Assembly: GCA_903861125.1 (NCBI GenBank)
Contig: CAIOTF010000003.1
Span: 13,274-77,273 of the forward strand
Direction: 5' to 3'
DNA: 64,000 bases
Source of the DNA: an uncultured Ignavibacteriota bacterium
GTDB taxonomy: Bacteria > Bacteroidota > Ignavibacteria > UBA10030 > UBA8401
The notes beneath the pieces are model-generated. The model made no database searches and was not told the DNA's origin. It saw only the letters and a list, made by a program, of their open reading frames with translations. The translations under genes were made by a program, and so were the position numbers. Below, in pieces: positions 3,534 to 61,601 of this stretch (positions within the stretch are counted from its first letter, which is position 1; every line of letters begins with the position of its first letter).

Positions 3534-3648
3534 AATTATTTTGTTTTGATAATTGAATGATGTACTGCGTTATGCACCAAGCATTCAAACGTCCGCACGA
3601 TTTATTTGCAGGCGAGGAATTTGGGAACAAAAAGAATCGGACCTTATA

Positions 3649-5544: not shown

Positions 5545-5578
5545 TCACCAATTTCCCGATGAGCACATTCCGACAATG

Positions 5579-7462
5579 TTATTTAACGAGAAGCATTTTT
5601 CTCGTGACCGTAGAATTCCCGGTATACAGCGAATAGAAATAAAGACCCGTTGCAAGATTCCCGGCGTCAAATGTAAAACGATAGTGACCGGCAGGTTTTT
5701 CCTCGTTGACTAATGTGGCAATTTTTTTCCCTACGACATCATACACTATTAATGCAACGTGCCCTTTTTCACGGACACTGTATTGAATGATAGTGGAAGG
5801 ATTAAAGGGATTTGGGTAGTTATTGGAAAGGTCATCATCCGTCGGAGATTGAATGTTCCCGATTGACCTGCCGTCAACACCAAGCACAACATCCGGTGAA
5901 CGTTTCCGGTTGAGCATGAGCATAGCCGCATCGGCAACAAGATATTTTCCCGGTTCCAACTGCGAGTTATCCAGTTTCAGTGCAACTTTATTCCCCGCCG
6001 AAAGGTACACCGTGCCGAGTTTATTCCATCCTTTTTTCGTCAGATCGCTTTGATCCACAATGACTGTTGTTGAATCGGTATCGGAATAGAGCGTATATCT
6101 GGCTTTCTGAGTCCACGGAGTATTTGGAGTCTGATAGGTGTATACATCGTAAAACGCTGAATATTGTACTGCAAAACCATAACGTATCTGCGCAGCTGCT
6201 GCCGTATCGGAAGTGCGGATAATAGAACCTGTAAATCCTTTCATCAAGTACTCTGTCCACGTTCCGGTCTTCAACGCTGAACCATCGGTCTCATTAACAA
6301 TGGTTGCCTTGGGTATCCATACTTTCCCGTTTCGATACGGAAGTGTTGCCGGAGACTGATAAAATTTATTTTTAAGATACGTCCCAACGCGGTTGGTGTT
6401 TTCACGAAGTCCTTCGTAAAAGAAAAAACATTCTCCGCGCGTTCCTTTTGTTCTGTTTGCCGTCAACATCTGACCCAGCAGGGTTGTATCTATAACATAG
6501 GTGCCGACCTTTGCCAAAACACCCGCAGTAAATACTTGCGGATTATATTGACCAACATCATTCCATGTCGTATTGAGAGCAAGATTGTATGAGCTGAAAT
6601 CATACTGATACAACTGGGGAATGACATTGTCCAGCAACCCTAACTGCACCCATGTTTTTGAGTCCTGTAGCAATTGCTGATATCCCCAGGAATACGGCGC
6701 CGGCGAAACAGACAAGATAGTGTTCTTCCCGCGGGCCTTGACGGAATCGCGCAGACGTCCAAGATATTCCGTGAGTTTATCGGCGCGCCATTTCATCCAC
6801 GATACGTCATTAAAATTTACAGGCGGTGCCGCACCAAGATGTTCATTCTTATACAGTTGAACGGTCGCGGAATCATATCCTCCCTCAACGGGCATAGCCG
6901 GCAGTCGATCGTCACCTTGCACACCATCAACATCGTAATTATCCAACACCTCCATCATCAGCGAGGTCATATAATTTTGCGGTCCGGTATTGAGCGGAGA
7001 CATCCAATCGAATCCATTATCAACGATCAGCGCTCCTGTGTTATCCTTCAGTGCCCAACCGGGATATTTTGCCAGAATATGGCCGCCGTTCAGACTGTAG
7101 GATGTTGAGAAACCGAACTCAAACCACGGAATCACTTCAATGCCGTTCCGGTGGGCTTCAATCACCAATCGTTCAAGGAAGTCCCTATTGACGAACGGAG
7201 AACCCGGAAGAACCGGTGCACTGAATAATCCGTTCATGATCTTACTCGGATACAATGTATATCCTTTATTATAGACAACCGGAAAAACAACATTCACTCC
7301 GATCGATGCCAGATAATCCATTGCTTCCGTGATGTTCACGTCGCTCGACAGGACGTTGCTGTCTACATTCGTCAGCCACGCAGCGCGGACTTCGCTTTTG
7401 TTTTGAGAGAACAGGCTGGAAACGGTAAGTGCAAAAGCAAGAATGGCAACAACTCTCTTCAA
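5579..7462 (-). CDS. GHL10 (DUF187) glycoside-hydrolase-like protein + CBD-like module + T9SS C-terminal domain (paralogue 2)
   Basis: Collinear with 3649..5544 ('EVRAAWLTNVDS', 'DFLERLVIEAHRNGIEVIPWFEFGF', 'YDVDGVQGDDRLPAMP'). Same C-terminal module, then the 'NNYPNPFNPSTIIQYSV' tail. Confidence 0.75.
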   Translation of the reverse strand: MKRVVAILAFALTVSSLFSQNKSEVRAAWLTNVDSNVLSSDVNITEAMDYLASIGVNVVFPVVYNKGYTLYPSKIMNGLFSAPVLPGSPFVNRDFLERLVIEAHRNGIEVIPWFEFGFSTSYSLNGGHILAKYPGWALKDNTGALIVDNGFDWMSPLNTGPQNYMTSLMMEVLDNYDVDGVQGDDRLPAMPVEGGYDSATVQLYKNEHLGAAPPVNFNDVSWMKWRADKLTEYLGRLRDSVKARGKNTILSVSPAPYSWGYQQLLQDSKTWVQLGLLDNVIPQLYQYDFSSYNLALNTTWNDVGQYNPQVFTAGVLAKVGTYVIDTTLLGQMLTANRTKGTRGECFFFYEGLRENTNRVGTYLKNKFYQSPATLPYRNGKVWIPKATIVNETDGSALKTGTWTEYLMKGFTGSIIRTSDTAAAAQIRYGFAVQYSAFYDVYTYQTPNTPWTQKARYTLYSDTDSTTVIVDQSDLTKKGWNKLGTVYLSAGNKVALKLDNSQLEPGKYLVADAAMLMLNRKRSPDVVLGVDGRSIGNIQSPTDDDLSNNYPNPFNPSTIIQYSVREKGHVALIVYDVVGKKIATLVNEEKPAGHYRFTFDAGNLATGLYFYSLYTGNSTVTRKMLLVK

Positions 7463-7475
7463 CGACTCTCCGGCT

Positions 7476-8600
7476 TTAATGTATAATTGATGGATATTCC
7501 GCTTTTTCTTTATAAAGATTCTTAAAGAAGGTAGGGTATTTTTTCAATCCTTCATAAAAGAAAAATACTTCGCCGTTAATGCCCCGTTTTCTGTTTTCCT
7601 TGATCATTGCGGCAAGATATTTTTGCGACGGATAATACTTTCCGACCTTTAAAAGAATTCCCGGGTAAAATCTGTCGAGTTTATCCTTATCGATTTGTGT
7701 GTTAACAATCTCGTCCAGCGATTCAACATAGCGTTTTAATTCATACCGGTAATTCTGAGGAATGATCTGATCGACAAAATCGTTTTTCAGCCAAGCCGGC
7801 CAGTCCTGCAGATATTCTTCTTTACTCCAGGGATAAATACTGGGAGACATCGTCACAAACACCTGCGGTTTCACTTCCTTCACAGAGGTATAGATCCTTT
7901 TCATATATTGATTCAGAATATCCGCTCTCCACTGCACCCAGGAAGTGTCTTTAAAATTTTTCGGCGGTTCCGCTCCCTGATGTTCTGAACGGTAGCGGTT
8001 AACAGTATAGGTATCGTATCCGCTTTCGGAGGGCATTGCCGGCAGCCGGTCATCCCCTTGTATTCCGTCAATATCATAATTCCGGACAACCTCCATAATC
8101 ATGGCCAGCATAAAATCCTGAACTTCCGGTCGGAAGCCGTTCATCCATTCAAAGCCGTTCTTCGAAACAAGTTTTCCTTCGTTGTCCATTGTAGCCCATT
8201 CGGGTTTTCGTTCGAGCAGCGTACCGCCGTTCTGTTTATAGGAAGCAGAAAATCCGAACTCGAACCACGCGATCACCTTAATTTCTTTCTTGTGAGCAGA
8301 TTCGATCAATTCCTTCAGCGGATCCCTGCCGGTGAATAATGTATCTATTTCACGTCCGGTAACCGCTTCGACAACCTTGCTCGGGAATGTTGTCATACCC
8401 TTATTCCACGTAACAACAAAGATCGTATTGAGACCGATCGCAGAGCAGTGATCGACTGCGGCATCGATGTTCTTTTTGGAATTTAATACTTTGCTGTCCA
8501 CATTGGTCAGCCAGACACCGCGGATGGCGCGGACCTTTTCTCCGGCAAAGAGAAACTGGAGAGAAAACAGTACTATGATTGTTGCGATAAAATGCTTCAT
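7476..8600 (-). CDS. GHL10 (DUF187) glycoside-hydrolase-like protein, catalytic domain only (paralogue 3)
   Basis: 374 aa with a signal peptide. Motifs 'AIRGVWLTNVDS', 'DPLKELIESAHKKEIKVIAWFEFGF', 'YDIDGIQGDDRLPAMP'. Lacks the CBD-like module and the T9SS tail. Confidence 0.75.
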   Translation of the reverse strand: MKHFIATIIVLFSLQFLFAGEKVRAIRGVWLTNVDSKVLNSKKNIDAAVDHCSAIGLNTIFVVTWNKGMTTFPSKVVEAVTGREIDTLFTGRDPLKELIESAHKKEIKVIAWFEFGFSASYKQNGGTLLERKPEWATMDNEGKLVSKNGFEWMNGFRPEVQDFMLAMIMEVVRNYDIDGIQGDDRLPAMPSESGYDTYTVNRYRSEHQGAEPPKNFKDTSWVQWRADILNQYMKRIYTSVKEVKPQVFVTMSPSIYPWSKEEYLQDWPAWLKNDFVDQIIPQNYRYELKRYVESLDEIVNTQIDKDKLDRFYPGILLKVGKYYPSQKYLAAMIKENRKRGINGEVFFFYEGLKKYPTFFKNLYKEKAEYPSIIH

Positions 8601-8641: not shown

Positions 8642-9355
8642 TCAGAGTTTGGCTTTCAGCCCGGCACGGATCGAGATAAACTGCATACCGGCAACATTTT
8701 CGAGATCAAGATCAAGCGCCTGCCAGAGTTCGCCGACGATCATTTTATAATCAGCCCCCACGGTGAACCATACAGGATCAGCGATTTTACCTGACAGTTC
8801 TATACCAAGATTAAATGTTCCGCTCCAATCCTCCTGCCTGTTTGAAGGCACGGCGAGTACGGCAGCCTTTACCGGCGTTCCGGTCGCAGCATTCGTGACG
8901 TATAACGAATCATAATACTGACTGCGGGTATTCACCCAGTTGGTAAAACCAAATCCGATCACACCGTTCGATTCCAAACCATCAAAACCCAAAATGTTCA
9001 TGTGAGCTTCGGCGGTAACAGAAGCCGTCTTTAAATTCATCGTCAGTTTCGGCAGCGGAAGTTTGTATTGCTGTGCGCTTGTTCCCTGCACTACCGATAC
9101 CGTTTTTTTGAGCATGGAAGAATTCACGGTGCCAAATTCAGCGTATTCAAATTTTCCGATCCAGGTCAAATGAGGTGTGATTTCAGCTCCGGCATAGACC
9201 ATGCCGGCGTTCGTTGCTAAGAAACGGTCATGTAATGTTCCCAACGGTAATTCGTACACTGCTCCGGCACCGATAACCGTTGCATGCTCCTGAGCCGATG
9301 CAGTGAATGCACCGATGCTTATACAGCAAATCACCGGTAGTATTCTGCGGATCAT
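8642..9355 (-). CDS. small outer-membrane beta-barrel-like protein (hypothetical)
   Basis: The track ORF starts at a TTG at 9445. The ATG at 9355 gives a clean signal peptide (MIRRILPVICCISIGAFTASAQE). Alternating hydrophobic pattern with a C-terminal 'GLKAKL'. Start choice is uncertain. Confidence 0.45.
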   Translation of the reverse strand: MIRRILPVICCISIGAFTASAQEHATVIGAGAVYELPLGTLHDRFLATNAGMVYAGAEITPHLTWIGKFEYAEFGTVNSSMLKKTVSVVQGTSAQQYKLPLPKLTMNLKTASVTAEAHMNILGFDGLESNGVIGFGFTNWVNTRSQYYDSLYVTNAATGTPVKAAVLAVPSNRQEDWSGTFNLGIELSGKIADPVWFTVGADYKMIVGELWQALDLDLENVAGMQFISIRAGLKAKL

Positions 9356-9441
9356 GGACTGCGTTTTGGTCCGGAGCGATGTCCGCTCTTTGGATGGACT
9401 ATTCCATAATGCTGGTTTTGATGTTGAAATGATCATACTCT

Positions 9442-10209
9442 TCAATAAAAGAATTCCAATCCGAGCCTGAAACCGGATTCGTTCGTAAAAATAAATTCGT
9501 TGTAACCAAACCTGTCTTTGGTTTCAAGATATTGCGTGTAATGAAGTGAAGACATAATACCCACACTGGAGAACATTTTGTACCGAACGGTTACACCGGC
9601 GGTGCCAAAAACAGGATTTCCCTTCTTGGCCGGCGCAAAATTTCTAAAGCTGTAGGTAAAGGAATACTCTGCCGCCGGGAAAACCTTCGTCCACGTTTCA
9701 TCGGCATACAACCTGCGCTGATAGAACGCCATACCCGCACCGAGCGTCGGTACCATTGTTAAATTTTCGGCAACAGTGAAAGTATAATCGCAATGAAGCA
9801 AGACGGGAATAAGATCCATTTTTTGCACAGAACCGATCATTGTAGAAAGTGAAGGATCTGCCCGCATATCTGCCTGGATCTTGTTCAAATACCTGTCGTT
9901 CCAGAATCTCCAGCCCCAGCGGTTGAGCTGATCAGTCTGGCTGACCGAATAAAGATAGTACCCCGCACGAAGACCAATCGTTACATTGTCAGCAATGGAA
10001 TAGATAACATCCATTCCGCCGCCGACCGCATCGGCATTCTTTACATCAAGCCGTTTTGAAAATGTTGACGAATATTCCGAAAAAGCCGTGATAGACTGTA
10101 ATTGTGCCTGCAGGATAACTGGAAATAAAACCATGCTCAAGAATACCGGGAAGTATGTACGATGGATCGATATTTTTTGTATAAGATTCATTGAACTATT
10201 TATTTTCAT
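9442..10209 (-). CDS. small outer-membrane beta-barrel-like protein (hypothetical)
   Basis: 255 aa. Signal-like N-terminus (..FPVFLSMVLFPVILQAQ) and a C-terminal 'RLGLEFFY' aromatic terminus typical of OM barrels. Its ATG overlaps the upstream stop as ATGA at 10206-10209. Confidence 0.5.
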   Translation of the reverse strand: MKINSSMNLIQKISIHRTYFPVFLSMVLFPVILQAQLQSITAFSEYSSTFSKRLDVKNADAVGGGMDVIYSIADNVTIGLRAGYYLYSVSQTDQLNRWGWRFWNDRYLNKIQADMRADPSLSTMIGSVQKMDLIPVLLHCDYTFTVAENLTMVPTLGAGMAFYQRRLYADETWTKVFPAAEYSFTYSFRNFAPAKKGNPVFGTAGVTVRYKMFSSVGIMSSLHYTQYLETKDRFGYNEFIFTNESGFRLGLEFFY

Positions 10210-11195
10210 TTCATCCCAACGTGTAATGTCATACGAAGAATGTTGCCAAGCCTGCCGTAATCGGCATAGGCAATATCAACAATCACCGGCATCGGTAATT
10301 GCGGATTAATACCGATACCAACGCTGTAGGACTCTTCGTCATAAAAGAACTTATAACCGCCCCGCAGCGCAATTGTATTGTTCCAGGAATACTCGGCGCC
10401 GACATTCACTTTTTCATTTCCGTCGTTTGGATGACGGGCTTCAATGGTTAGTGTCAACCGGTGCTCCGAAGTTGCATCGCCGATCAGTTCGCCCGCCAAG
10501 CCCAATTTAAACACCGCCGGCATTTTAAATTCGTCATTGATGAACTTTGCATTGGCACCGAAGTTCTGCATGGCTGCCGCCATTCTCAATGAACCGAGTC
10601 CGGTGTAATAGAGCACGCCCGCATCAAGAACAACATTGCTTGCGGAGTAACTATCGATCCGTTCCTGCACATATTTAAGCGTAGTGCCGAAAGAAAATTG
10701 ATCCGTGAGCATTTTGGAATATGTAACGCCGGCCGCCAGAGACTGTGCCTCGAATGTTCCAATAACGTCGAACACTTGTTTGTCCTGAGCGACCACTGTT
10801 CGCGGCATGGATCCGTAGTCAAAAAGCACAAGACCGACAGCGAACATACCGGCATCGGTTTTTACAGAATAGCTGGACGAATAATTTTTAATATCTGCGA
10901 TCCACGGCGCATAGGATGCAGTAAAAGAATGCTGGTACTCGCTGAATCCCAAAGAGGCAGGATTGTTGAAAACCGCCGAAGAGTTTTCGTCGGCCAACGC
11001 AAGACCGGATTCACCCAGGGATGCCTGCCGCGATGTAGCGGGAACCTCAAGAAAAACAAAACCGGCCGTTGCAGTTTTCTTAAATTCCTGTGCCGACACA
11101 CACATAGTATTTAGCAGGAAGAACACTAATGCCAATGTAAAAGTACGTCTTATACTACGTTGTTCCGGATGCAAGATTTTTATTAATGAATTCAT
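10206..11195 (-). CDS. PorV/PorQ-like outer-membrane barrel protein
   Basis: 329 aa with a signal peptide ending 'CVSAQE'. The N-terminal 'AGFVFLEVPATSRQASLGESGLALADENSSAVFNNPASLG' resembles the PorV/PorQ (UPF0164) family signature. Confidence 0.55.
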   Translation of the reverse strand: MNSLIKILHPEQRSIRRTFTLALVFFLLNTMCVSAQEFKKTATAGFVFLEVPATSRQASLGESGLALADENSSAVFNNPASLGFSEYQHSFTASYAPWIADIKNYSSSYSVKTDAGMFAVGLVLFDYGSMPRTVVAQDKQVFDVIGTFEAQSLAAGVTYSKMLTDQFSFGTTLKYVQERIDSYSASNVVLDAGVLYYTGLGSLRMAAAMQNFGANAKFINDEFKMPAVFKLGLAGELIGDATSEHRLTLTIEARHPNDGNEKVNVGAEYSWNNTIALRGGYKFFYDEESYSVGIGINPQLPMPVIVDIAYADYGRLGNILRMTLHVGMK

Positions 11196-11210
11196 AATTC
11201 CAATGTTGAT

Positions 11211-13280
11211 CTACCGAACAATTGCAAACTTACCGATTTTAGTACCTAACGGAGATTCAAGATGAAAAATGTAAATGCCGCTTTTAACGAACTGTCCGTA
11301 TTCAGAAACCTGGTCCCACGGCACAATTGCTCCGACATCATTACCCACATTGATCGTTTTCACCAGATCACCGCGCACAGTATAAATTCTGATCGTGCAC
11401 GGATTTGGGATATTGACGAACTGCAGGTTGTCTCCGGCTCCGGGCTGTGATCTTCCTGAACCGATCACAAACGGATTCGGCACCACGAGCACATTGTCCG
11501 TTGATTGAGTCGGCGGCAGTGTTGCGACAAACGGTGTTGATGTGCGGTTGGCAAAGATGGAAGTTTCCATGGGCGGAACATTCGTCAGTGTTTGTACGCC
11601 GGTCCATGCAGCGCGGGCTGCATTGAATGCCGTCAACGCATAGTAATATCCTGCTCCGATCGTAACAGTAGAATCCATATAGGAATAACGGCCGCCGGAA
11701 TAGTACCGCGCATCGTTCTTCTTTACGGTGTCGATCAATTTCCAGGGACCGATGGGCAAATACGCAGAACGGTAAACAAGATATCCCGCAAGATTTTTCG
11801 ATCCGTCATATGCATCAGGAATATTTTCTGCATCATTCGTCCAGCGAATAATATTGGCGATCCTTCGGCTGCCGCGATTATAGTCAACGGTAATCTTTGG
11901 CGCTGCGGGAGGATTAGGATGAGCATACAAATTATCGAAAGTCAATTTTGCCCGGGCAACGGATGCATTAAAGGCCTTCTTGCTTTCTGCATTGACAACG
12001 TTTGAAGCAACCTGCGGATACGCAACAGCGCGGCTGTAATCAATCCCATCAACCACTTCGGCAACAACAATTCGTATTGAATCCCCCGGCAAAATATCCC
12101 AGGGACCCACGGACATAAGCGACCACATTCGCGACCGTTTCATGTACAGTGTGTCGAGCGGACTGGAAACAAAATGGTAGGTCTTGCTGATATCCCTCAA
12201 TACTGAATACATCGGTTCCGGCAATGACGGCGTATTTGTGAAAGGCCCAAGATCCCTTGTGGGATCGGCAGCCGACCAGCCGTATTGCGTAACAGCTGTT
12301 GTCGCGCCGGTTTTGTTCTTTGTTGCATATAATAGTGAGAAGCCGGCGCATGCAGGAGCAAGATATTCTCCGCTGGGAGCATATTTATTGTTAAGTGTAT
12401 CCTTCAAAATCAGTGGTCCCATTGATGCGGCAAAACCAAAATCTTCTTTCACCGTGCCGAGCGTTGTCGGATCATCCACAGCGTAACCATACAGGGTTTT
12501 CGACGAAGCCGTATAAAGAAATTGCGTGTTGCGCGCCCCCGGTGTCAGAGCCGGAAACAGCACTGACCATTCGCGCGAATTACAATGAATACCGTACGAC
12601 AGCATGGAGGTGAACTCAAAGAGTGTATCGGCAACAAATCGGCCGGCCGGCAATAACGTACGAAGTTCCGGAGAGATATTCTTGATGACATAATCGACGA
12701 TAACATAATTTTCGTCCGCCATCGATCCGCTCCACTGATGAACGGTTCTCGTTACACGGACAGGCAGGATATGTTTGTATGCCTCTTCATTCTTATCGGT
12801 GTAGTTCTTATTGTATTCCCATACCGTCTTCAACACCTGCTCGCCGGCATGTGCATCTTTCTGCACCCAATAATTTTCTCCGCCGGGATAGAGTTCAGTA
12901 TTCGTCGTCACCACATATTTTGAATTGGCGCCGTCCGCAATTGATCCCGCATACATCGCCCAATCGTCAACCGTTATCACACTGTCTTTGCTCCATTTTG
13001 CACCGACATACATGCCGCCCGTGGAAAGATATGATGCCGATCCGCCGAGATTCTCATTGATCAATGTCGGATCGAATCCGGGCCAGTCCAGCCCGATCCC
13101 TTTTTTTGCCCAATCACCGAACGGCGGTCCGGATTTCCCATAGGAATATGTCTGCCAGAGTTTTCCCCGGTTCAGCACCATGAGCGGTGATGACTGGACC
13201 TGACTGACAAGTTCATTCGCCGCAAAGAGAATCACGATCAGAAGAACGAACGCCTTTGGTATGTTATTTCTTTTTTTCAT
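11211..13280 (-). CDS. secreted 689-aa protein with FN3-like segment and CTD/FlgD-Ig-like C-terminal beta-sandwich (function unknown)
   Basis: The ATG at 13280 gives MKKRNNIPKAFVLLIVILFAANELVSQ, a signal peptide with no lipobox Cys. 'GYLVYRS...YYYALTAFN' is FN3-like. The C-terminus 'VLVVPNPFVIGSG...CTIRIYTVRGDLV...SGIYIFHLES' resembles a T9SS/FlgD-Ig tail. It lies 27 nt downstream of the TBDR gene. Confidence 0.6.
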   Translation of the reverse strand: MKKRNNIPKAFVLLIVILFAANELVSQVQSSPLMVLNRGKLWQTYSYGKSGPPFGDWAKKGIGLDWPGFDPTLINENLGGSASYLSTGGMYVGAKWSKDSVITVDDWAMYAGSIADGANSKYVVTTNTELYPGGENYWVQKDAHAGEQVLKTVWEYNKNYTDKNEEAYKHILPVRVTRTVHQWSGSMADENYVIVDYVIKNISPELRTLLPAGRFVADTLFEFTSMLSYGIHCNSREWSVLFPALTPGARNTQFLYTASSKTLYGYAVDDPTTLGTVKEDFGFAASMGPLILKDTLNNKYAPSGEYLAPACAGFSLLYATKNKTGATTAVTQYGWSAADPTRDLGPFTNTPSLPEPMYSVLRDISKTYHFVSSPLDTLYMKRSRMWSLMSVGPWDILPGDSIRIVVAEVVDGIDYSRAVAYPQVASNVVNAESKKAFNASVARAKLTFDNLYAHPNPPAAPKITVDYNRGSRRIANIIRWTNDAENIPDAYDGSKNLAGYLVYRSAYLPIGPWKLIDTVKKNDARYYSGGRYSYMDSTVTIGAGYYYALTAFNAARAAWTGVQTLTNVPPMETSIFANRTSTPFVATLPPTQSTDNVLVVPNPFVIGSGRSQPGAGDNLQFVNIPNPCTIRIYTVRGDLVKTINVGNDVGAIVPWDQVSEYGQFVKSGIYIFHLESPLGTKIGKFAIVR

Positions 13281-13307
13281 AGAATCATTACACACAATGA
13301 ACCACAA

Positions 13308-16300
13308 TCAATTAAAACCGACACCAAGCGTAAAGAATACCTGGCGCGGAATATTTCTGTATGCAGCATACGAAGCAACAATATGATCGACCCTCGACGG
13401 ATCCGAACCAGCATCCGCAATGGTAACGCCACGCTGAACCCAATCATACAACGCGGTACTGTTCGCCGGCGGCGTGAGTATTTTGTTCTCGAACAGATTC
13501 ATCACTCTGATGCCCATAACGATATTGACGGAGCCCATGACGATATTCTTCGAGAAATTCAGATCAACGTTCGTTTCGATCGGATACCGTCGGTTATAGA
13601 CAGCATCTTTAAGAGAGAAATCAGTAATGTATGTGTACGGCGTTCCCGACTGTGCCGTATATGTCATACTTGCCACTGCATTCTGTAGAATATCCGCACC
13701 AAAGATCCGTGGACCTTCACCGGCAGCCCAGCGGTACTGGACCAAACTTCTGAAATTATGTGTACGGTCCCACGACGCCAGAAATTCTCCCGTATAATTG
13801 CGCGTTGAATAATTTCTCGAGTTATCCGGATAGATCATATTCGCACCGAAATTTCCGGAGGTGGTCTGCGAAAGACTGTAGCTCAGCCGGTACGACCAGC
13901 GATCTATGCCCATGGTTTCAAACGTTGCTTCAAATCCGATCGTTGAGCCAAATCCGTTATTGGAATATGTGGAATAGGAATTGAGCATTTCATTGGAATT
14001 CGTAAATCCGACAAAATGCTGGCGCGAACCGGTAAAGGCTGCAACAGTTTGCGATCCGATCTGCGAAGTCCGGTCATTGTAATAGAGAACAAAGTCGGAC
14101 CGGTATTCATCGCCAATTGCCTGCTGGAGTCCGATCTCGTAATTGATGGTCTTCTTCGGTTCCAGATCAGGATTACCGATTCCGTTCCATCCCTGATACG
14201 TCATGTTTGACAGTGCCTGACTGAATGTCGGCATAGAAGCGAAATGTCCGTACTGGATACGAAGCGCTGTTCCCACACCAACCGGAAATGAAACGCCAAG
14301 CCGCGGCTGAAAAACAAATTTTGTTTCGGAATCCATTGTTTCCGGATTTCCTGATTTTGTCGGTCCGTCCGTACCGGGATAAAGGAAATAGAATTTATCT
14401 TTCGGAACCCGGGATTGGAAATTATAGACCTCTGCGCGGAGTCCGATATTTGCGATCATACCGGAATATTCCATCTTGTCCTGCACATAGGCGGCAACAT
14501 CAATGGGATACGCGCGGTAATATTCCGCAAAACCGTTTCGGGCAACATACGAATTTGCCTGATAACTGCCGTACACGCCTGTGTTTCGCATATCGTAGTA
14601 ATGAGCCGCTATACCGGTCTTTAAGAGATTAGTCTGAGTAACCTGATTCGCATAATCTGTTTTGAAGCTGTATGTTTCCGTGCGGCTGTCCTGATACCAA
14701 TTCGTGCTGACACGTTCGAGCACAGTAAAATATTTTGATTCCCACCACGTGCCGTTACGGAGAACCGATCCGTTCACATCACCGGCACTGTCCAAACGGT
14801 CAACGATCTGAGAGTAACTTGGAAGATAGATGTACGGAAGTTCGTAGCGTTCCTGCTGATGAGCAACCATGATATCAAGAAAAGACTGTGCATTGATCGT
14901 GTGTACCCAATTGATCGACTGCGCAATGGTCTGTTCGCTTCGAACCGGATCGAAATTGATATCGTATTTTCTAGATGGATTCGGAGGCGAACCGTTCAGC
15001 CCTGACCAACGGATATCATCGGATCCATCCCACAGTCCGCCGAGAAAGTTCTGATAACTTCCCATCAATTTTATTTTATTATTCTGGATCGGCTGATATG
15101 TAACGCTGAGAATATAATTCTGCATCGTCTGCACTTTTTCCGGAGAAGGTAGCCGCGTAGGATTGCGTTTGTACTCGCCCGAAAAATAGAACTTAAGAAG
15201 ATTGGGATCGCCGCCAAGCGGTCCGCCGAAACCGAACATGTACCGCTGATATGCAAATTTTCGATAGTCATACACGCCGAGAACATTGTCGTCTCCCGGT
15301 TCATGGTTCTTCACCCATGTTTGATACGCCCAGGCAATTTCACTGTCGACGATCTGATTATAGAGAGCAGTGTCGGCTCCGGTTTTATTCTTCAGCAGAT
15401 AGTCGTAGCGGCCGTTCGGTATAAATCCTAACTCCTGCGCAATATTGTCCCTGTTCGCCATCCACTTATCGAGCGTTCCCCATTTCTGCCATTCATAATT
15501 GGAATGATCGTACAAATACTGGCCATAGTGGTATTGTCCCGGCGGACGGTATTCAACACGGAATTCGCCCGTCAATTTCGGAGCCCCTTCCTTCATTGCC
15601 ACTTTTACCACACCGGCCTGAGCATTTCCGTATTCCGCAGAGAATCCTCCGGTGATCAATTCCATTTGCTGTACTCCGAGCGGATTCACATCGAACTTCC
15701 AGGAGTTGTTGGCTTTGTCCGCGCCGAATTCTCCCGGTGCACTGGTATTTGAGGTGACCTGATCCACGCCGTTGATCTGAAAATTCAACTCGTACGAACC
15801 GGATCCGCGGACGGAGTATTCGCCGGATGCACTTTTCTGGAAACCGGCGTACAGGTCCATCGCGCCGCGAAGCCCTTCAATCGGTGCGGAATTGATCTGC
15901 GAACTTTCAATAGTCGTTGCCGTTGCCGTGCGGTCCCGGATCACTTGCGGTTTGGTGGCAACAACAATCACCTGGTTCAGTTCTATTGTTGCATCGCTCA
16001 GTTGAAAATCTGCCGTCGTCGTGCGGTCAATGAAAATATCGACATTCTGCTGAAGCACCGTTGCATAGCCAAGCATACTCGCTTTAACATGATACCGACC
16101 CGGTGAAATGTTCAAAATGGAATAGCGTCCGTTCACATCGGTCACAGTGCCGATGTTCGTACCGACAATGATCACATTCACGCCAATTAGCGGTTCTTTC
16201 GTTGCGCCATCGGTAACATTACCGACAAGTTTGCTGGTCTGCGCCAATACAATGAATTGAGCTGAGAGGAAAAGAGCGAAAATGAGATGAGTATATAATC

Positions 16301-16313
16301 TAACTCTATTCAT
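13308..16313 (-). CDS. TonB-dependent receptor with N-terminal CarboxypepD_reg domain (SusC-like architecture)
   Basis: 1001 aa with a signal peptide. 'GNVTDGATKEPLIGVNVIIVGTNIGTVTDVNGRYSILNISPGRYHV' is CarboxypepD_reg-like. TonB-box-like 'QVIVVATKP'. Plug motif 'ITGGFSAEYGNAQAGVVKV'. Long beta-barrel region. Confidence 0.85.
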   Translation of the reverse strand: MNRVRLYTHLIFALFLSAQFIVLAQTSKLVGNVTDGATKEPLIGVNVIIVGTNIGTVTDVNGRYSILNISPGRYHVKASMLGYATVLQQNVDIFIDRTTTADFQLSDATIELNQVIVVATKPQVIRDRTATATTIESSQINSAPIEGLRGAMDLYAGFQKSASGEYSVRGSGSYELNFQINGVDQVTSNTSAPGEFGADKANNSWKFDVNPLGVQQMELITGGFSAEYGNAQAGVVKVAMKEGAPKLTGEFRVEYRPPGQYHYGQYLYDHSNYEWQKWGTLDKWMANRDNIAQELGFIPNGRYDYLLKNKTGADTALYNQIVDSEIAWAYQTWVKNHEPGDDNVLGVYDYRKFAYQRYMFGFGGPLGGDPNLLKFYFSGEYKRNPTRLPSPEKVQTMQNYILSVTYQPIQNNKIKLMGSYQNFLGGLWDGSDDIRWSGLNGSPPNPSRKYDINFDPVRSEQTIAQSINWVHTINAQSFLDIMVAHQQERYELPYIYLPSYSQIVDRLDSAGDVNGSVLRNGTWWESKYFTVLERVSTNWYQDSRTETYSFKTDYANQVTQTNLLKTGIAAHYYDMRNTGVYGSYQANSYVARNGFAEYYRAYPIDVAAYVQDKMEYSGMIANIGLRAEVYNFQSRVPKDKFYFLYPGTDGPTKSGNPETMDSETKFVFQPRLGVSFPVGVGTALRIQYGHFASMPTFSQALSNMTYQGWNGIGNPDLEPKKTINYEIGLQQAIGDEYRSDFVLYYNDRTSQIGSQTVAAFTGSRQHFVGFTNSNEMLNSYSTYSNNGFGSTIGFEATFETMGIDRWSYRLSYSLSQTTSGNFGANMIYPDNSRNYSTRNYTGEFLASWDRTHNFRSLVQYRWAAGEGPRIFGADILQNAVASMTYTAQSGTPYTYITDFSLKDAVYNRRYPIETNVDLNFSKNIVMGSVNIVMGIRVMNLFENKILTPPANSTALYDWVQRGVTIADAGSDPSRVDHIVASYAAYRNIPRQVFFTLGVGFN

Positions 16314-16468: not shown

Positions 16469-17908
16469 TTACTTAAGCATCAACATCTTCTTTGTAATCT
16501 TGGATTCCGGTGTAATGATTGTGTAAAAATAAATGCCGCTGGGATTATTCATACCATTGAATACCTCAACGTGCTTTCCCGCACCGGTAAATCCTTCGGA
16601 CAACACGGTTATTTCTCTTCCGAGCACATCCGAAACAACTAATTTCACATACGAAGGTTTAGACAGCGTATACGAAATTAAAGTAGATGGATTGAACGGA
16701 TTGGGATAATTCTGGCCCAATTCAAAATTGTATATCCGTCCGTTTGTTTCGTTGACTCCAACCGTTAAACTTTTGAACCGGAAAACAGCGCGTGCATAGC
16801 GGTCTGCTGCATAGGCTAGACTCATTTCTTTGTTCAACACTACGTCGCACGGTCCGACCATTGGAGCACCATTCGGGTTAGCTACATCCATACTATTTTT
16901 ACTCGGAAGATCATAAAGCGCTTCGGCATTAACTCCGTCCACTTTGAATCCTTTTACCCAGCGGCGCGTTGAATCAACACCGGCCACCCATAAGATCCCT
17001 TTCCCGTCCACCGTGATACCATACGGAAAGGAATTGATAAAGGAGAGATATCCGTTAAAATCTGTTACACGGTTGCCGGTATAATCGATCGGCTGGACTT
17101 GCGTTCCTCCAGACCATACGGCGATTCCTCCGGTTTGCTGTGAACCGGAAATTGAATTTCGCGAAGTATAGAACAGACTTTTTTTATCATAATAACTTGC
17201 ACCGGGAACCAGTGCGACATCACGGATCACATCGAAAGCAAGCGATTGCGGACCTCCCGGTTCGGTCGCATTGCTGAAGACCGACGTATTGTTTGTATCC
17301 GGCGAATTATAAGAACCTCTGCTTGATTTTTTGAAGGTGTTCCCCAAATTATACCAGCGAAAACTTGTTCCGAAATCGACACCGGTTATGATCATAGAAT
17401 CTTTAGACATGTCCATACCGTTAATGTATGTTCCATACCCCGCTCCCGAAATGTTATAACCGAATCGCTGCACCGTTGACGTATCGGCATTCACATAATA
17501 ATAGAGAGCTGATACCGTATTGGTTTTTGTTTTCGGATACGGCTGGGTAGCAGTTGCGATAACATCATTGCCTAACACCGAAATTCCGCGCAACGCACCG
17601 ATATTTCCTTTTAACGTATCGGAATCTCCATTAACATCATAGTCGATGAATAATTTGAAAACCGTGTCTGCTTTGTTGGCGTAATAAATTGCGTTATGTG
17701 CTCTCGCATCATCAATTTTTGAGGAGATCACATAGATGCGTCCGTTTTGGTCGATGGTCATAAGATACGGTTTGGCAGCAATGCTGTCTTTCACGGGAAA
17801 CTTAACGGTGTTAAGGTAACTCCAGTCACTGTTTTGAGCCTGTGCAACGATCACAGAAAAAATCATTACAACGATCACGTAAAGAAAAAGTGTAGTTTTT
17901 TGTGTCAT
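16469..17908 (-). CDS. secreted beta-propeller-like protein with T9SS C-terminal domain
   Basis: The ATG at 17908 (GGAG 8 nt upstream) gives MTQKTTLFLYVIVVMIFSVIVAQAQ. The C-terminus is 'QNYPNPFNPSTLISYTL...GIYFYTI'. The longer track start at 18007 adds a non-signal extension. Confidence 0.65.
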   Translation of the reverse strand: MTQKTTLFLYVIVVMIFSVIVAQAQNSDWSYLNTVKFPVKDSIAAKPYLMTIDQNGRIYVISSKIDDARAHNAIYYANKADTVFKLFIDYDVNGDSDTLKGNIGALRGISVLGNDVIATATQPYPKTKTNTVSALYYYVNADTSTVQRFGYNISGAGYGTYINGMDMSKDSMIITGVDFGTSFRWYNLGNTFKKSSRGSYNSPDTNNTSVFSNATEPGGPQSLAFDVIRDVALVPGASYYDKKSLFYTSRNSISGSQQTGGIAVWSGGTQVQPIDYTGNRVTDFNGYLSFINSFPYGITVDGKGILWVAGVDSTRRWVKGFKVDGVNAEALYDLPSKNSMDVANPNGAPMVGPCDVVLNKEMSLAYAADRYARAVFRFKSLTVGVNETNGRIYNFELGQNYPNPFNPSTLISYTLSKPSYVKLVVSDVLGREITVLSEGFTGAGKHVEVFNGMNNPSGIYFYTIITPESKITKKMLMLK

Positions 17909-18042
17909 ACAATGCTCCGGATGTATTTGCTGATTGTTGAATAAAAATAAATTTCGATTGATCGTGAATGGTAATGTTCGTTCCGCTGATGATACCTTTT
18001 CTGCCAAATAACGTTTTAAAACTGCCGAATTTACATCAGAAG

Positions 18043-18120: not shown

Positions 18121-19596
18121 ATGGAAATGATCCAAGTAACATTATTGATCGCATTCTTCCTGATCATGGCCGTGTTGATGTTTCTGCGGAAACTTCCCGC
18201 AATCATCGCGTTGCCCATTATGGCAGTTCTCATTGCGCTGACAGGAGGAATTTCCCTCCCCGATACGGTCCGGTACGTGATTGGTACGGGTTCACTGAAG
18301 CTATCAACAGCCTATACCATCTCCATCTTTGGAAGCATGCTGAGCGTTCTGTTGCAAAAAACAGGGGTTGCGGAAAATTTCATAAAAAAAGGGGCGGAAC
18401 TTTCCGGCGATAATCCGTGGATCATTGCCGTTGTGATGCTTTCTCTTATCATCGTTCTTTTTAGCACACTCGGCGGACTGGGCGCGATCATCATGGTGGC
18501 AACTATTGTGCTTCCTATTATGTCGTCCGTTGGAATCGGACCGCTGACGACGGTCGGGATATTTTTGTTCGGATTGAGCATCGGCGGAATTTTGAATGTT
18601 GGTAACTGGGCCGTCTATATTTCGGTGATGGGCTTAACGGTCGATCAGATTCGTCCGTTCGCGCTGGTGATGTTCTGCATTTCATTCGCTGCCGCACTGG
18701 TCTACATCACCGTGCAATTATACCGAGACGGGAATAATTTGAACATAAAAAAAATAATTTCCCGAAATCTGCTGTTTTTGGCGTTGGCAGGAATCATTCT
18801 TTATTCGTACAACATGCTGTTGAACGAAGAAGCCCGAATCATGATCAACGAATCACTTTCCGGCATCGGCAGTATCCTTACATGGATGATCAGCGCAGGG
18901 ATTGTTCTGCTTTTTGTTGCCGCGTTCGTACGTTTGCTGCTGAAAAAAAATGAACATTCTCAGGAAGTACATTGGATAACGATATTCTCCCCCGCAATTC
19001 CTTTACTCCTGATCCTTCTATATAATATGGATTTTATCGCTTCGTTCGTGGTCGGTCTTATCTACACCTACATCGCTACATATAAAAAGGGAAGATTGAA
19101 CGTTTTTATCCAATCGATGTTCGAAGGGGGTGCGGTAGTGATGCCGGCCGTTGCACTGATGTTTGGCATCGGTATGCTTCTTGTTGCCATCATGGGACCC
19201 GGCACTCCCGTAGCAGCTTATCCGGACGGCTGGCCGGTTCTGCTGATCCTTAAACCGCTGATGATGAAGATTGTTCCTTCCAATCCGTTCGAATATGTTT
19301 TCATTTTTACGCTTGCCGCACCGCTTGCATTATATAGAGGGCCGTTAAATGTGTGGGGCATGGGATACGGATTAGCGGCAGTCTTTCTGGCAAGCGGCTT
19401 AAATCCCGGCGCTGTGATGGGACTGCTGCTCGGCGTCGGTCATATCCAGGGTGTCAGCGATCCAACAAACACGCAGAATGTCTGGCTCGCCAACGAAATG
19501 AGAATTGATGTGCAAAAAATTCTTTGGAATACTATTCCCTATACGTGGATCCTTGCATTGTTAGGATTGACCTGTTCTGCCATCATGTTCATGTAA
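18121..19596 (+). CDS. ion-transporter-superfamily permease (GntP/CitMHS-like)
   Basis: 491 aa with about 12 TM segments. Organisation resembles GntP-type carriers (N-terminal TM hairpin, 'GGLGAIIMVATIVLPIMSSVGIGPLT'). Substrate unknown. Confidence 0.5.
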   Translation: MEMIQVTLLIAFFLIMAVLMFLRKLPAIIALPIMAVLIALTGGISLPDTVRYVIGTGSLKLSTAYTISIFGSMLSVLLQKTGVAENFIKKGAELSGDNPWIIAVVMLSLIIVLFSTLGGLGAIIMVATIVLPIMSSVGIGPLTTVGIFLFGLSIGGILNVGNWAVYISVMGLTVDQIRPFALVMFCISFAAALVYITVQLYRDGNNLNIKKIISRNLLFLALAGIILYSYNMLLNEEARIMINESLSGIGSILTWMISAGIVLLFVAAFVRLLLKKNEHSQEVHWITIFSPAIPLLLILLYNMDFIASFVVGLIYTYIATYKKGRLNVFIQSMFEGGAVVMPAVALMFGIGMLLVAIMGPGTPVAAYPDGWPVLLILKPLMMKIVPSNPFEYVFIFTLAAPLALYRGPLNVWGMGYGLAAVFLASGLNPGAVMGLLLGVGHIQGVSDPTNTQNVWLANEMRIDVQKILWNTIPYTWILALLGLTCSAIMFM

Positions 19597-19611
19597 TTTC
19601 ACAGAAAAAGA

Positions 19612-21768: not shown

Positions 21769-21779
21769 GAGACCGCAGC

Positions 21780-22616
21780 GTGATAAACAATACGACATAT
21801 GACTATATCGTTTTCGGGACTACTATTCCGGGAATCATTTTTGCGGTCAAAAAATCGCTCGCCGGATATTCCGTTCTACTGACAAATATGTTCGGTTTCC
21901 CCGGCGGCAGTATTACTGAACAGTTGAACTGTTACCAGAATGTCGATGAAACTCAATTACAGGGGTTGGCACAAGAGATCTATCGTTCCATAGCACCCGA
22001 AAATTTTGAACGAACAATCGTCAATCCTGAGTCGGTAAAATTCGTTCTTCAGCAAACAGTGGAGAATTCATCCGTTCATCTTTACTTTCACGTTACGCCG
22101 AAAAAGATTGTAATGAATGGTGACGGAATATTCGAAGTTTCCCTTCTAGCAAAAGAAGGCAATACGGCCGTAACCGGAAAAAAAATAGTCGATGCTTCGG
22201 AAGATTTTTATGGAGCCGTACTGCTGAACAGAAAAAGGATAATACAAGAACGATGTGTCAACCTATTCATTTCGCGTCCATTGAACGATAAATTTTTGCC
22301 GTTTGGAAAAATCGCAAAAACAGTGAAACTGTCCGACGGAAGATATTGGATCTCTTTGAGACTGAATTCGCAGGATGAGCTTTTTGCGGAGAATGAAACA
22401 CACGATCTGCTGAATACTTTTCGGGAAATTCTGGAAGATTCTCACAGCAGGATCCAAGTGCTCCCTCTCGGCGCTCAGACTATCTACGGATTGGAAAGAG
22501 GAGATAATTTCAAAAATACATTCTCAACTATTGATGATATTCTCGGTTCTTCCATGAAACCGTCCGACCAATTTCAAAGGGGATCGGTATTAGAATCGGC
22601 TCTTAATAAATTTTAG
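21780..22616 (+). CDS. FAD_oxidored-like protein with degenerate dinucleotide-binding motif
   Basis: 278 aa, GTG start. The N-terminus 'YDYIVFGTTIPGIIFAVKKSLAGYSVLLTNMFGFPGGSIT' parallels 23334..24644, but GxGxxG is replaced by GTTIPG. Confidence 0.4.
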   Translation: MINNTTYDYIVFGTTIPGIIFAVKKSLAGYSVLLTNMFGFPGGSITEQLNCYQNVDETQLQGLAQEIYRSIAPENFERTIVNPESVKFVLQQTVENSSVHLYFHVTPKKIVMNGDGIFEVSLLAKEGNTAVTGKKIVDASEDFYGAVLLNRKRIIQERCVNLFISRPLNDKFLPFGKIAKTVKLSDGRYWISLRLNSQDELFAENETHDLLNTFREILEDSHSRIQVLPLGAQTIYGLERGDNFKNTFSTIDDILGSSMKPSDQFQRGSVLESALNKF

Positions 22617-22643
22617 AATATCTTTACGACGACAAAAATAACT

Positions 22644-23327: not shown

Positions 23328-23333
23328 TACCGC

Positions 23334-24644: not shown

Positions 24645-24656
24645 ATTTTATCGTTA

Positions 24657-26066: not shown

Positions 26067-26075
26067 ACAGGGACA

Positions 26076-27446: not shown

Positions 27447-27469
27447 CTTCTCCGTATATCGTTAGAACT

Positions 27470-30244: not shown

Positions 30245-30259
30245 TTTTCAGACTGTCCA

Positions 30260-32671: not shown

Positions 32672-32679
32672 AAATCCTT

Positions 32680-38247: not shown

Positions 38248-38266
38248 GGAAAGCAGTATCCGCACA

Positions 38267-61598: not shown

Positions 61599-61601
61599 AG
61601 A

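Follow-up and report, generated by a model that had tools for sequence, protein, structure and literature searches.

Five co-directional genes in the window (the whole 64,000-nt stretch of DNA analysed here) encode a TonB-dependent receptor (TBDR), a secreted 689-aa protein (P689), a PorV/PorQ-family barrel and two small β-barrels (B255 and B238), and the first three of these recur together in several related phyla. Their recurrence suggests a hitherto undescribed counterpart of the SusC/SusD uptake machine of Bacteroides that works without a lipid anchor. We propose, with probabilities about evenly balanced and judging from sequence and predicted structure, that it is a lipoprotein-free TonB-dependent uptake module, in which P689 would be exported by the T9SS, anchored through its C-terminal domain (CTD) on the PorQ-like barrel, and would serve the receptor.

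Organization of the locus

As listed in Table 1, the ORFs and their translations placed the quintet on the minus strand in the order TBDR, P689, PorV/PorQ-family barrel, B255 and B238. With the chosen starts, gaps of 27 nt (TBDR/P689), 15 nt (P689/329-aa barrel) and 86 nt (B255/B238) separated the genes, and the stop of the barrel gene overlapped the start of the B255 gene in an ATGA at 10206–10209; the five co-directional genes, gaps and overlap given in the preliminary description all agreed with the ORF coordinates. The P689 start was chosen because a 100%-identical public protein (P0001) is also 689 aa long. A 91%-identical orthologue of B255 was called at 249 aa, and an alternative start is found at 10191, so the true start of this gene may lie six codons downstream of the ATGA overlap.

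A CTD protein of the type encoded upstream (16469–18007) directly preceded the receptor gene in 43 of 59 testable loci, and a GHL10 gene directly followed B238 in 52 of 63, often with DUF5009 next. Bona fide type A CTDs were detected in at least six proteins of the window, indicating a T9SS cargo repertoire in this organism.

Table 1. Genes and domains of the locus and its surroundings (positions in the window)
Feature	Position	Strand	Remarks
Upstream secreted protein	16469–18007	-	co-directional; N-terminal part without annotation; type A CTD (Por_Secre_tail TIGR04183, 37 bits, cutoff 23)
TBDR gene	13308–16313	-	1001 aa
P689 gene	11211–13280	-	ORF 11211–13307; ATG at 13280 gives 689 aa
P689, FN3 domain	11613–11909	-	residues ~458–556
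P689, CTD-like domain	11214–11489	-	residues 598–689
PorV/PorQ-family barrel gene	10206–11195	-	329 aa
B255 gene	9442–10209	-	255 aa
B238 gene	8642–9355	-	signal-peptide Met at 9355 gives 237 aa; ORF extends to 9445 from TTG
Downstream enzyme genes	2112–8600	-	co-directional; Pfam
GHL10a	7476–8600	-	no CTD
GHL10b	5579–7462	-	GHL10 + Golvesin_C + type A CTD
GHL10c	3649–5544	-	GHL10 + Golvesin_C + type A CTD
DUF5009 membrane protein	2112–3533	-	Pfam

Conservation of the quintet and of the trio

Loci from 80 Ignavibacteria genomes were compared, each neighbour being counted only where the contig was long enough. The TBDR (68/68, upstream of P689), the PorV/PorQ-family barrel (75/75), the 255-aa barrel (73/73) and the 237-aa barrel (66/66) accompanied P689 in every testable locus. 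Thus the quintet, whose synteny in related genomes had been put forward as a test, was invariant across 80 species with P689 identities of 46–97%, and the gene arrangement is not due to chance.

Distant contexts were sampled outward from P689-like proteins, and those cut by a contig end were left out; in 10/10 of the contexts so obtained, which came from other FCB lineages, the P689-like gene, a member of a distant subfamily, had as neighbours a PorV/PorQ-family barrel and a receptor of the subfamily found here. Named relatives of these modules came from Latescibacterota, KSB1, Calditrichaeota, WOR-3, Neomarinimicrobiota and one “Bacteroidota” MAG. The gene order of the trio differed among them, which argues for selection on co-occurrence and not for inherited synteny, and what else surrounded the trio, namely enzymes and further CTD proteins, changed from context to context. 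Catabolic genes (GHL10, GH18, ROK kinases, sugar transporters and NamZ) were found around the modules. Tandem P689-like paralogues could accompany a single barrel (three in L082, possibly six in L081), making a simple fixed 1:1 binding impossible; “surface binding proteins” is therefore a more fitting description of them than a lid in strict 1:1 pairing.

The receptor and the PorV/PorQ-family barrel

The receptor comprises a signal peptide, a CarboxypepD_reg-like N-terminal domain (residues 29–117), a Plug (126–235) and a large barrel, with Pfam matches to CarbopepD_reg_2 (PF13715, 1e-20), Plug (PF07715, 2e-7) and OMP_b-brl_3 (PF14905, 7e-12). A putative TonB-box-like sequence (NQVIVVAT) would lie at residues ~113–120. 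On the SusC/RagA model TIGR04056 the receptor reached 64.1 bits (cutoff 368.25), in an alignment limited to N-terminal residues 28–257. Its earlier label, “SusC-like”, is thus justified for the domain architecture but not for the family. Receptors of the distant modules scored 218–310 bits on the TBDR HMM (113+106 for the split gene of L094), as compared with 39 bits for a thiamine-type TBDR.

The 329-aa protein scored 191 bits on the PorV/PorQ family model NF033709 (cutoff 90), and its first assignment as a PorV/PorQ-like barrel was upheld; it is not merely a generic FadL/OmpP1 porin. The equivalog cutoffs of PorQ (NF033711, 120.6 vs 220), PorV (NF033710, 88.2 vs 250) and PorV2 (NF052325, 28.8 vs 325) were not reached, and PorP/SprF (TIGR03519) gave only 19 bits against 90.55. 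The protein is of PorQ-like length, its PDB match was F. johnsoniae PorV (6h3i_F, E 2.6e-10), and the Pfam models for PorV and FadL both gave ~26 bits, slightly below their cutoffs. Equivalent barrels in the distant modules were all above the NF033709 cutoff, and the seven of them that were scanned likewise missed the PorQ, PorV and PorV2 equivalog cutoffs. In 6/7 barrels the PorQ score was at least as high as the PorV score, these being weak matches.

P689 and its C-terminal domain

P689 consists of a signal peptide (residues 1–27), a β-rich head (~28–420), a long helix (426–449), a linker rich in Pro, an FN3 domain and, at the C-terminus, a seven-stranded CTD-like sandwich. The AF2 model (pLDDT 80.6, pTM 0.81) was almost all β with a single long helix, and Foldseek matches to FN3 domains backed the FN3 assignment. 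No Pfam family, SusD families included, matched P689 even at E<=10, and its signal peptide MKKRNNIPKAFVLLIVILFAANELVSQ has no lipobox Cys; the signal-peptide consensus of the family ends in AQ. A SusD/RagB identity was ruled out, given the lack of this Cys and an all-β model in place of an α-helical TPR-like fold, and the gene after the receptor is, as first described, not SusD-like. The head resembled only non-catalytic β-supersandwich domains (Foldseek, TM 0.20–0.25), and no catalytic-domain match was found with Pfam or Foldseek; the head could still be enzymatic.

P689 belongs to a large family without annotation (7313 clusters at 50% identity), whose heads are highly variable. Conservation in the family was highest in the CTD-like domain (0.53 vs 0.30 for the head), as would be expected if this domain had a conserved binding partner and were more than a mere secretion signal.

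The CTD has seven strands (598–687) and a PNPF-type motif, and its last residue is basic (C-terminal end ...GKFAIVR). Its match to type A CTDs was 91% by hhalign, and the wider P689 family matched the CTDs of cargo encoded in the locus itself at 96.9% (E 1.8e-10), which makes the P689 C-terminal sandwich a homologue of T9SS type A CTDs. Together with the FN3 matches and the AF2 sandwich, these comparisons confirmed the FN3-like segment and the T9SS CTD-like C-terminus recognized at the outset. Relative to type A CTDs the P689 CTD carries a 10-residue insertion after PNPF; it scored 14.5 bits (E 0.027) on TIGR04183, below the type A cutoff of 23, and had no match to Pfam PF18962. The best named match was the C-terminus of PorZ (NCBIfam, E 6.6e-5, weak), and PorZ was also the sole CTD match in a PDB sequence search (5m11_A, residues 668–758, E 5.4e-4, weak). 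PorZ retains its CTD to bind PorQ (review PMC10202324).

The two small barrels

B255 was modelled (AF2, pLDDT 90.4) as a small, closed antiparallel outer-membrane β-barrel with a signal peptide, of the OmpA/OmpW/Ail-like kind, with Foldseek matches to Legionella porin III, OmpA, OmpW and Ail (E 1e-10 to 1e-6) and a conserved aromatic helix insert at residues ~94–117; OMP_b-brl (PF13505) matched 3/44 members of its family. B255 and B238 aligned over their full length by hhalign (94.7%, E 6e-8) and are distant paralogues. Both proteins of ~240 aa had been noted as barrel-like, which the model and Foldseek matches bore out for B255 and the hhalign link for B238. A 236-aa barrel related to B238 (E 2e-10) is encoded upstream of the receptor in the Latescibacterota-type module L084. 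B255 and B238 are kept in the Ignavibacteria locus but do not belong to the module in general.

Comparison with known systems

No paper on a module of TBDR, P689-like protein and PorV/PorQ-family barrel was found in a literature search. The nearest likeness is to SusC/SusD (RagA/RagB) pairs, or “utilisomes”, in which a TBDR with an N-terminal CarboxypepD_reg-like domain is likewise followed by the gene for a secreted accessory protein. As in polysaccharide utilization loci of Bacteroidota, there is co-transcription with secreted glycan-degrading enzymes, and the accessory genes have diversified and are in some cases duplicated, as with SGBPs. However, the receptor described here is below the SusC/RagA cutoff and has no adjacent SusD/RagB gene; P689 is all-β (head, FN3 and CTD) and no lipoprotein, unlike the α-helical TPR-like SusD; and a third gene, for a PorV/PorQ-family barrel, is obligate. 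As anchor we propose a protein-protein contact through the CTD instead of a lipid.

The combination of a CTD surface protein with a PorV/PorQ-family barrel is known from the PorZ-PorQ and PorU-PorV pairs in the T9SS attachment complex of P. gingivalis, where the barrel holds an uncleaved CTD (PMC10202324). In contrast to these, P689 is no core T9SS component, its head is unrelated to PorZ or PorU, and the pair is encoded beside a TBDR in catabolic loci, in a family of 7313 clusters with possibly six tandem copies on one contig. Proteins carrying a type B CTD are anchored by cognate PorP/SprF-like barrels encoded next door (PMC9143113), and there too a cargo gene with an adjacent dedicated barrel gives surface anchorage without lipid or A-LPS. 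But the CTD of P689 is type A-like with the ~10-residue insertion, not CHU_C/TIGR04131, its barrel is PorV/PorQ and not PorP/SprF, and no receptor is involved in type B systems.

For the docking of one barrel on another, BamG, a 14-strand FadL-like barrel, packs against the larger barrel BamA while its loops hold the surface protein BamH (PMC12578637), and this sets a structural precedent for a docked FadL-like barrel carrying a surface protein. BtuG is a non-SusD surface protein capping the TonB-dependent transporter BtuB (PMC10404256). Both are analogies only: BamH and BtuG are lipoproteins but P689 is not, and homology was detectable only at the level of the FadL-like barrel class (BamG, E 8e-4, one module barrel).

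Proposed mechanism and alternatives

In the proposed uptake module, the receptor (CarboxypepD_reg, Plug and barrel) would bring in the substrate, and P689 would be a cell-surface accessory subunit whose variable β-sandwich head captures it, the helix and FN3 domain forming a stalk. The divergent, PorZ-like type A CTD would take P689 through the T9SS and escape cleavage, and would then be held non-covalently by the adjacent cognate PorQ-like barrel, in the manner of PorZ on PorQ. This barrel would serve as membrane anchor in place of the lipid anchor of SusD or an SGBP, keeping P689 near the receptor, with B255 and B238 presumably added as accessory subunits in the Ignavibacteria locus. Since the module is co-transcribed with T9SS-secreted GHL10 enzymes, it is proposed to take up products of the glycan degraded by GHL10, which is probably rich in N-acetylhexosamine. 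Docking of P689 near the receptor by a PorV paralogue, as suggested in the preliminary description, is made more plausible by the presence of the trio in all ten distant contexts, by the CTD being the most conserved part of the family with its best named (weak) matches in the retained CTD of PorZ, and by the higher, though weak, PorQ than PorV score of the 329-aa barrel. That receptor, PorQ-like barrel and P689-like protein form one outer-membrane complex, the barrel docking on the receptor like BamG on BamA and the P689 head acting as a capturing cap, is a bolder reading that we consider less likely than not.

The ordinary CTD proteins often found in the same loci could be the clients of the barrel instead of P689. 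The products of the locus may be separate, co-regulated parts: P689-like proteins would be ordinary T9SS cargo with a CTD cleaved by PorU, released or linked to A-LPS, the barrel would be a locus-specific shuttle for the CTD cargo of the operon (GHL10b, GHL10c and a 512-aa protein) or a FadL-type channel, and no stable receptor complex would form. Several bona fide type A CTD proteins within the loci, the NCBI annotation of some P689-like proteins merely as “T9SS type A sorting domain-containing protein”, the tandem P689-like copies with one barrel and the equal FadL and PorV Pfam scores are consistent with this. However, in all ten distant contexts receptor, P689-like protein and barrel stayed adjacent amid varying enzymes and further CTD proteins, a PorZ-like CTD as the most conserved region is unusual for a disposable signal, and the NCBIfam score puts the barrel firmly in PorV/PorQ. 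We regard this explanation as rather unlikely.

In Myxococcus, the CarboxypepD_reg-type TonB-dependent barrel Oar is reported to export the protease PopC. The module might likewise work in secretion, the receptor exporting the P689-like protein(s) and the PorQ-like barrel taking them over at the cell surface, with no need for the core T9SS translocon; the strict adjacency of the three genes, the tandem “cargo” arrays behind a single receptor and barrel, and the position of the receptor outside SusC/RagA would suit such a role. But the catabolic surroundings fit import, the P689 CTD is homologous to T9SS signals in a window where T9SS cargo is abundant, and we know of no established mechanism for TBDR export of a ~70 kDa protein, which makes secretion very improbable. 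Least probable, by a small margin, is that P689 and its barrel are a paralogous PorZ/PorQ-like attachment pair that binds no nutrient but supplies the sortase with a glycolipid or LPS-like acceptor on which the enzymes of the locus are anchored: the PorZ match of the CTD and the barrel's leaning to PorQ (both weak) speak for it, but the PorZ match is limited to the CTD, the two β-propellers of PorZ are replaced by a β-sandwich head and FN3, and the many clusters, variable heads and tandem arrays beside receptors suit substrate diversity and not housekeeping.

If receptor, PorQ-like barrel and P689-like protein do form one complex, they would do the work of SusCD in a way that depends on the T9SS and not on lipoproteins, in thousands of variants across several FCB lineages, including Ignavibacteria, KSB1, Calditrichaeota, Latescibacterota, WOR-3 and Neomarinimicrobiota.

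Gene organization of the locus

The quintet consisted of genes for a TonB-dependent receptor, the secreted protein P689, a PorV/Q-family barrel and two small outer-membrane barrels, B255 and B238. With the starts listed in the table, the spacers of 27 nt and 15 nt, the ATGA overlap (10206-10209) and the 86-nt gap agreed with the values of the preliminary description. The overlap of the 255-aa and 329-aa genes was probable rather than certain, because the 255-aa protein has a close orthologue that was called six codons shorter. In the window, the co-directional run extended beyond the interval first described, both upstream and downstream. Scanning the locus for promoters and terminators yielded 31 promoter-like sites versus 32 in shuffled sequence and 22 terminator-like sites versus 16.1 (sd 3.9); no convincing site was detected within the intergenic gaps, and the counts were not clearly above those of the shuffles.

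Features of the receptor locus, of P689 and of the surrounding gene clusters (nucleotide positions in the window unless marked as residues)
Feature	Position	Strand	Basis or content
512-aa ORF with type A CTD	16469-18007	-	Upstream of receptor
TonB-dependent receptor, 1001 aa	13308-16313	-	ORF
P689, 689 aa	11211-13280	-	ORF continues to TTG at 13307; public protein with 100% identity has 689 aa
PorV/Q barrel, 329 aa	10206-11195	-	ORF
B255, 255 aa	9442-10209	-	ORF
B238, 237 aa from signal-peptide Met	8642-9355	-	ORF extends to 9445
Three GHL10 genes	7476-8600, 5579-7462, 3649-5544	-	Pfam; downstream of quintet
DUF5009 multi-pass membrane protein	2112-3533	-	Pfam; end of GHL10 operon
P689 beta-rich head	Residues ~28-420		AF2 model
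P689 long helix, then Pro-rich linker	Residues 426-449		AF2 model
P689 FN3 domain	Residues ~458-556		AF2 model
P689 C-terminal seven-strand sandwich	Residues 598-689		AF2 model
Long co-directional run, divergent from module	18121-34329	+	First part: unannotated membrane protein, hydantoinase-like, NanE (ManNAc-6-P epimerase), FAD oxidoreductase; further genes: PGM/PMM-family mutase, HAD-like, GH38 alpha-mannosidase, GH94 phosphorylase; last listed: NAGPA phosphodiester glycosidase fused to Golvesin_C and type A CTD
Secreted enzymes with Golvesin_C (PF25275) between catalytic domain and T9SS CTD	3649-7462, 32680-34329		Two GHL10, one NAGPA
Two-component pair	35107-38899		Reg_prop/Y_Y_Y beta-propeller sensor histidine kinase (HisKA_3 and HATPase), then separate LuxR-type response regulator
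ROK	39381-40418		
Secreted ASST protein	42626-45226		Arylsulfotransferase (ASST) domains, CBM4_9 and type A CTD; adjoins GH5 cellulase-family gene
GH123 cluster	58572-62912		GH123-family protein (full-length match, 1507 bits) adjoining DUF5077+DUF3472 protein, then galactokinase-like and nucleotidyltransferase genes

Domains of P689

The signal peptide of P689 contained no Cys, and the protein had no Pfam match even at E<=10. An AF2 model from 34 homologues (pLDDT 80.6, pTM 0.81) comprised a head, a helix, an FN3 domain and a C-terminal sandwich. A SusD-like or lipoprotein partner was thus ruled out by the Cys-free signal peptide, the all-beta model and the lack of a Pfam match. A Foldseek search of the PDB returned FN3/Ig matches and a weak supersandwich similarity of the head only (GH94 N-domain and a polysaccharide lyase, TM 0.20-0.25) and no whole-protein fold match; no function was assigned to the head. 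Nothing was found in PDB sequences with the P689 alignment A1, and the wider alignment A3 found FN3 domains and the CTD of PorZ only.

The C-terminal sandwich scored under the curated cutoff for type A CTDs (TIGR04183, 14.5 vs 23). In profile-profile comparison it aligned at 91% probability with genuine CTDs from cargo proteins of this locus, and an alignment of 39 members of the wider family matched the type A CTDs of this cargo at 96.9% (E 1.8e-10); the match began at the PNPF motif, ended at the basic C-terminus and included a 10-residue insertion. P689 itself ends in GKFAIVR. The best named sequence matches of this domain were to PorZ: an NCBIfam model (positions 666-741, E 6.6e-5) and PDB 5m11_A (residues 668-758, E 5.4e-4), the sole CTD matched in the PDB.

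Receptor and barrels

CarbopepD_reg_2, Plug and OMP_b-brl_3 domains were identified in the receptor by Pfam, and a TonB-box-like sequence, NQVIVVAT, was read between its N-terminal domain and plug. The receptor had been called SusC-like; this held for its architecture but not for membership of the SusC/RagA family (TIGR04056, 64 bits vs a cutoff of 368).

The 329-aa protein belonged to the PorV/PorQ family (NF033709, 191 bits vs a cutoff of 90) and matched F. johnsoniae PorV (PDB 6h3i_F) at E 2.6e-10, results which ruled out a generic FadL porin. Pfam alone was ambiguous (FadL 26.0 and PorV 26.6 bits, both below cutoffs). The protein scored higher against PorQ (120.6 bits) than against PorV (88.2 bits), being an equivalog of neither. 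By AF2 (pLDDT 90.4) and Foldseek, the 255-aa protein was a small barrel of the OmpA/OmpW/Ail-like kind, in which an aromatic helical insert is conserved, and the 237-aa protein was its distant paralogue (hhalign 94.7%). Kinship of the small barrels with the PorV/Q barrel was ruled out (hhalign ~5% probability).

Conservation in Ignavibacteria

A genome scan yielded 80 loci with P689 identities of 46-97%, nearly all labelled Ignavibacteria or Melioribacteraceae by their submitters; MAGs labelled Ignavibacterium were among the sources of orthologues. By our own ORF and HMM analysis of loci long enough for each test, the receptor was a neighbour in 68/68, the PorV/Q barrel in 75/75, B255 in 73/73 and B238 in 66/66. 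A GHL10 gene directly followed B238 in 52 of 63 loci, and a gene for the 512-aa CTD protein preceded the receptor in 43 of 59. These results indicated that the quintet was an invariant core and the enzymes a variable periphery.

The DUF5009 gene was often kept at the end of the GHL10 operon in related loci. At one locus from an Ignavibacteriales MAG (L044, 6846-9962), the receptor gene was fragmented into six ORFs, and splits were also present in the GHL10 and DUF5009 genes; either the locus is decaying or the long-read assembly contains frameshift errors.

Related modules in other phyla

An exhaustive profile search showed that P689 represents one subfamily within a very large family that lacks annotation and has no model in Pfam or NCBIfam: 7313 representatives (50% identity) were found with E<=1e-3 and 2381 with E<=1e-10. 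Members, mostly of 600-800 aa, were attributed by the submitters' labels to WOR-3, KSB1, Calditrichaeota, Latescibacterota, Neomarinimicrobiota, Ignavibacteria and a "Bacteroidota" MAG, and some were labelled "T9SS type A sorting domain-containing protein" at NCBI. They shared the end of the head (GPY..PGD...IV), the helix, an FN3 motif (GYRVYRS...YYY.VTA.D) and a C-terminal motif (VVPNP[FY]...F.NLP..CTIRI[FY]T..GDLV...SG.YI....GKF.I[IV][RK]). Most of the head was variable, and the C-terminal domain was the most conserved region (0.53 vs 0.30 for the head).

Twelve distant members were looked up in their contigs. In all ten contexts uncut by a contig end (L082, L083, L084/85, L086, L088, L089, L090, L092, L093 and L094), sampled starting from P689-like proteins, the P689-like gene or genes adjoined a CarboxypepD_reg+Plug receptor (~980-1140 aa) and a ~330-340-aa protein. 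The latter matched the barrel HMM in 10/10 cases and passed the NCBIfam PorV/PorQ family cutoff in all seven scanned (107-183 bits). The receptors scored 218-310 bits on an HMM of the window receptor (113+106 for the split gene of L094), and a thiamine-type TBDR from a contig that also bore a module scored 39 bits, indicating that module receptors form a subfamily.

Gene order was variable, with the barrel before or after and P689-like genes sometimes on both sides of the receptor. Tandem P689-like copies were frequent: three in L082 (10001-16415) and six in L081, a KSB1 contig (JAFGMA010000275.1, 1-14859) whose end cut the first copy. Flanking genes were catabolic and locus-specific (GH18 and ROK; ROK, MFS and SIS; NamZ, PIG-L and acetyltransferases; alpha-L-fucosidase; GFO/IDH oxidoreductases). 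B238-like small barrels were found in only one other module, L084. Mere vertical inheritance of synteny within one clade was ruled out, because the trio of receptor, P689-like protein and barrel recurred in other phyla with other gene orders, other enzymes and ~25-35% P689 identity. There is hardly any doubt that the trio is a genuine functional unit under selection.

Three loci (L081, L082 and L093) had P689-like gene(s) followed by a gene for a FlgD_ig/Por_Secre_tail protein of ~390-400 aa, and this small CTD protein may be a further component. At L088 (12134-21664) the module was followed by acetyltransferases, a PIG-L deacetylase, NamZ (exo-MurNAc-ase family) and an SSF transporter, suggesting a peptidoglycan/MurNAc-scavenging version. 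The PorV/Q-family gene of L083 (12140-13149) was split into 85-aa and 240-aa ORFs by a frameshift or sequencing error; the rest of this module was intact and adjoined GH18 and ROK genes.

Surrounding gene clusters

The cargo enzymes of the locus were GHL10 proteins that also carry Golvesin_C and a type A CTD. From this cargo and the divergent operon one might speculate that the substrate is an N-acetylhexosamine-containing polymer. The divergent run and the ROK gene suggest an amino-sugar or phosphoglycan catabolic regulon, which may have a substrate in common with the GHL10 locus. The DUF5009 family is related to heparan-alpha-glucosaminide N-acetyltransferase, and its link with GHL10 could reflect processing of de-N-acetylated hexosamine residues. 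The recurrent position of Golvesin_C suggests a carbohydrate-binding or spacer role; we know of no characterization of such a role in bacteria.

The two-component pair was a split version of the hybrid sensors of Bacteroides and possibly regulates the surrounding glycan loci. The domain combination of the ASST protein was unusual. The GH123 cluster was another hexosamine or galactose-related cluster.

Proposed mechanism

PorV and PorQ are T9SS-associated barrels, and the CTD proteins PorU and PorZ keep their CTDs uncleaved and bound to PorV and PorQ, respectively (PMC10202324); reviewers there suggested that cleavage is prevented by cognate PorV-like barrels. BamG, a FadL-like barrel, lies packed against BamA, and its loops hold a surface protein (PMC12578637). 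On the simplest reading in view of these precedents, P689-like proteins would be surface proteins exported by the T9SS, whose conserved PorZ-like CTD would remain bound to the cognate PorQ-like barrel; the variable head would bind the substrate of the adjacent receptor, with the helix and FN3 domain of P689 as a stalk. This whole chain, which generalizes an idea of the preliminary description, we regard as an evenly balanced proposition. The occurrence of paralogues in tandem arrays speaks against a lid in fixed 1:1 stoichiometry and favours binding subunits that are multiple or exchangeable.

A rather unlikely alternative is that the parts are co-regulated and independent, P689-like proteins being ordinary cleaved cargo and the barrel either a shuttle for all CTD cargo of the locus or a FadL-type channel. 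An Oar/PopC-like export role of the receptor is highly improbable, and a PorZ/PorQ-like attachment paralogue is slightly more so.

Significance

A full-text literature search found no description of this module composition; in the Caldithrix genome paper, BtuB and thiamine receptors are the only ones mentioned. That TonB transporters can have accessory proteins at the surface, and that PorV-like barrels can anchor proteins by a retained CTD, is already known; the combination of both principles, its breadth and the P689 protein family appear to be undescribed.

SusCD-type uptake, the paradigm of glycan foraging, is defined by its lipoprotein partner and occurs mostly within Bacteroidota proper. 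Other FCB lineages are dominant in sediments, soils, bioreactors and the dark ocean, and the equipment of their abundant CarboxypepD_reg-type TonB receptors is, to our knowledge, essentially unknown. If the retained-CTD proposal is true, the P689 family would provide a candidate partner family for such receptors, with thousands of variants, and a concrete anchoring mechanism, the PorZ/PorQ-like retained CTD. The T9SS would then have a new job in the assembly of uptake machines, beyond secretion of enzymes and adhesins, and the three-gene signature would predict substrate-uptake loci in genomes for which SusD-based PUL detection finds none.
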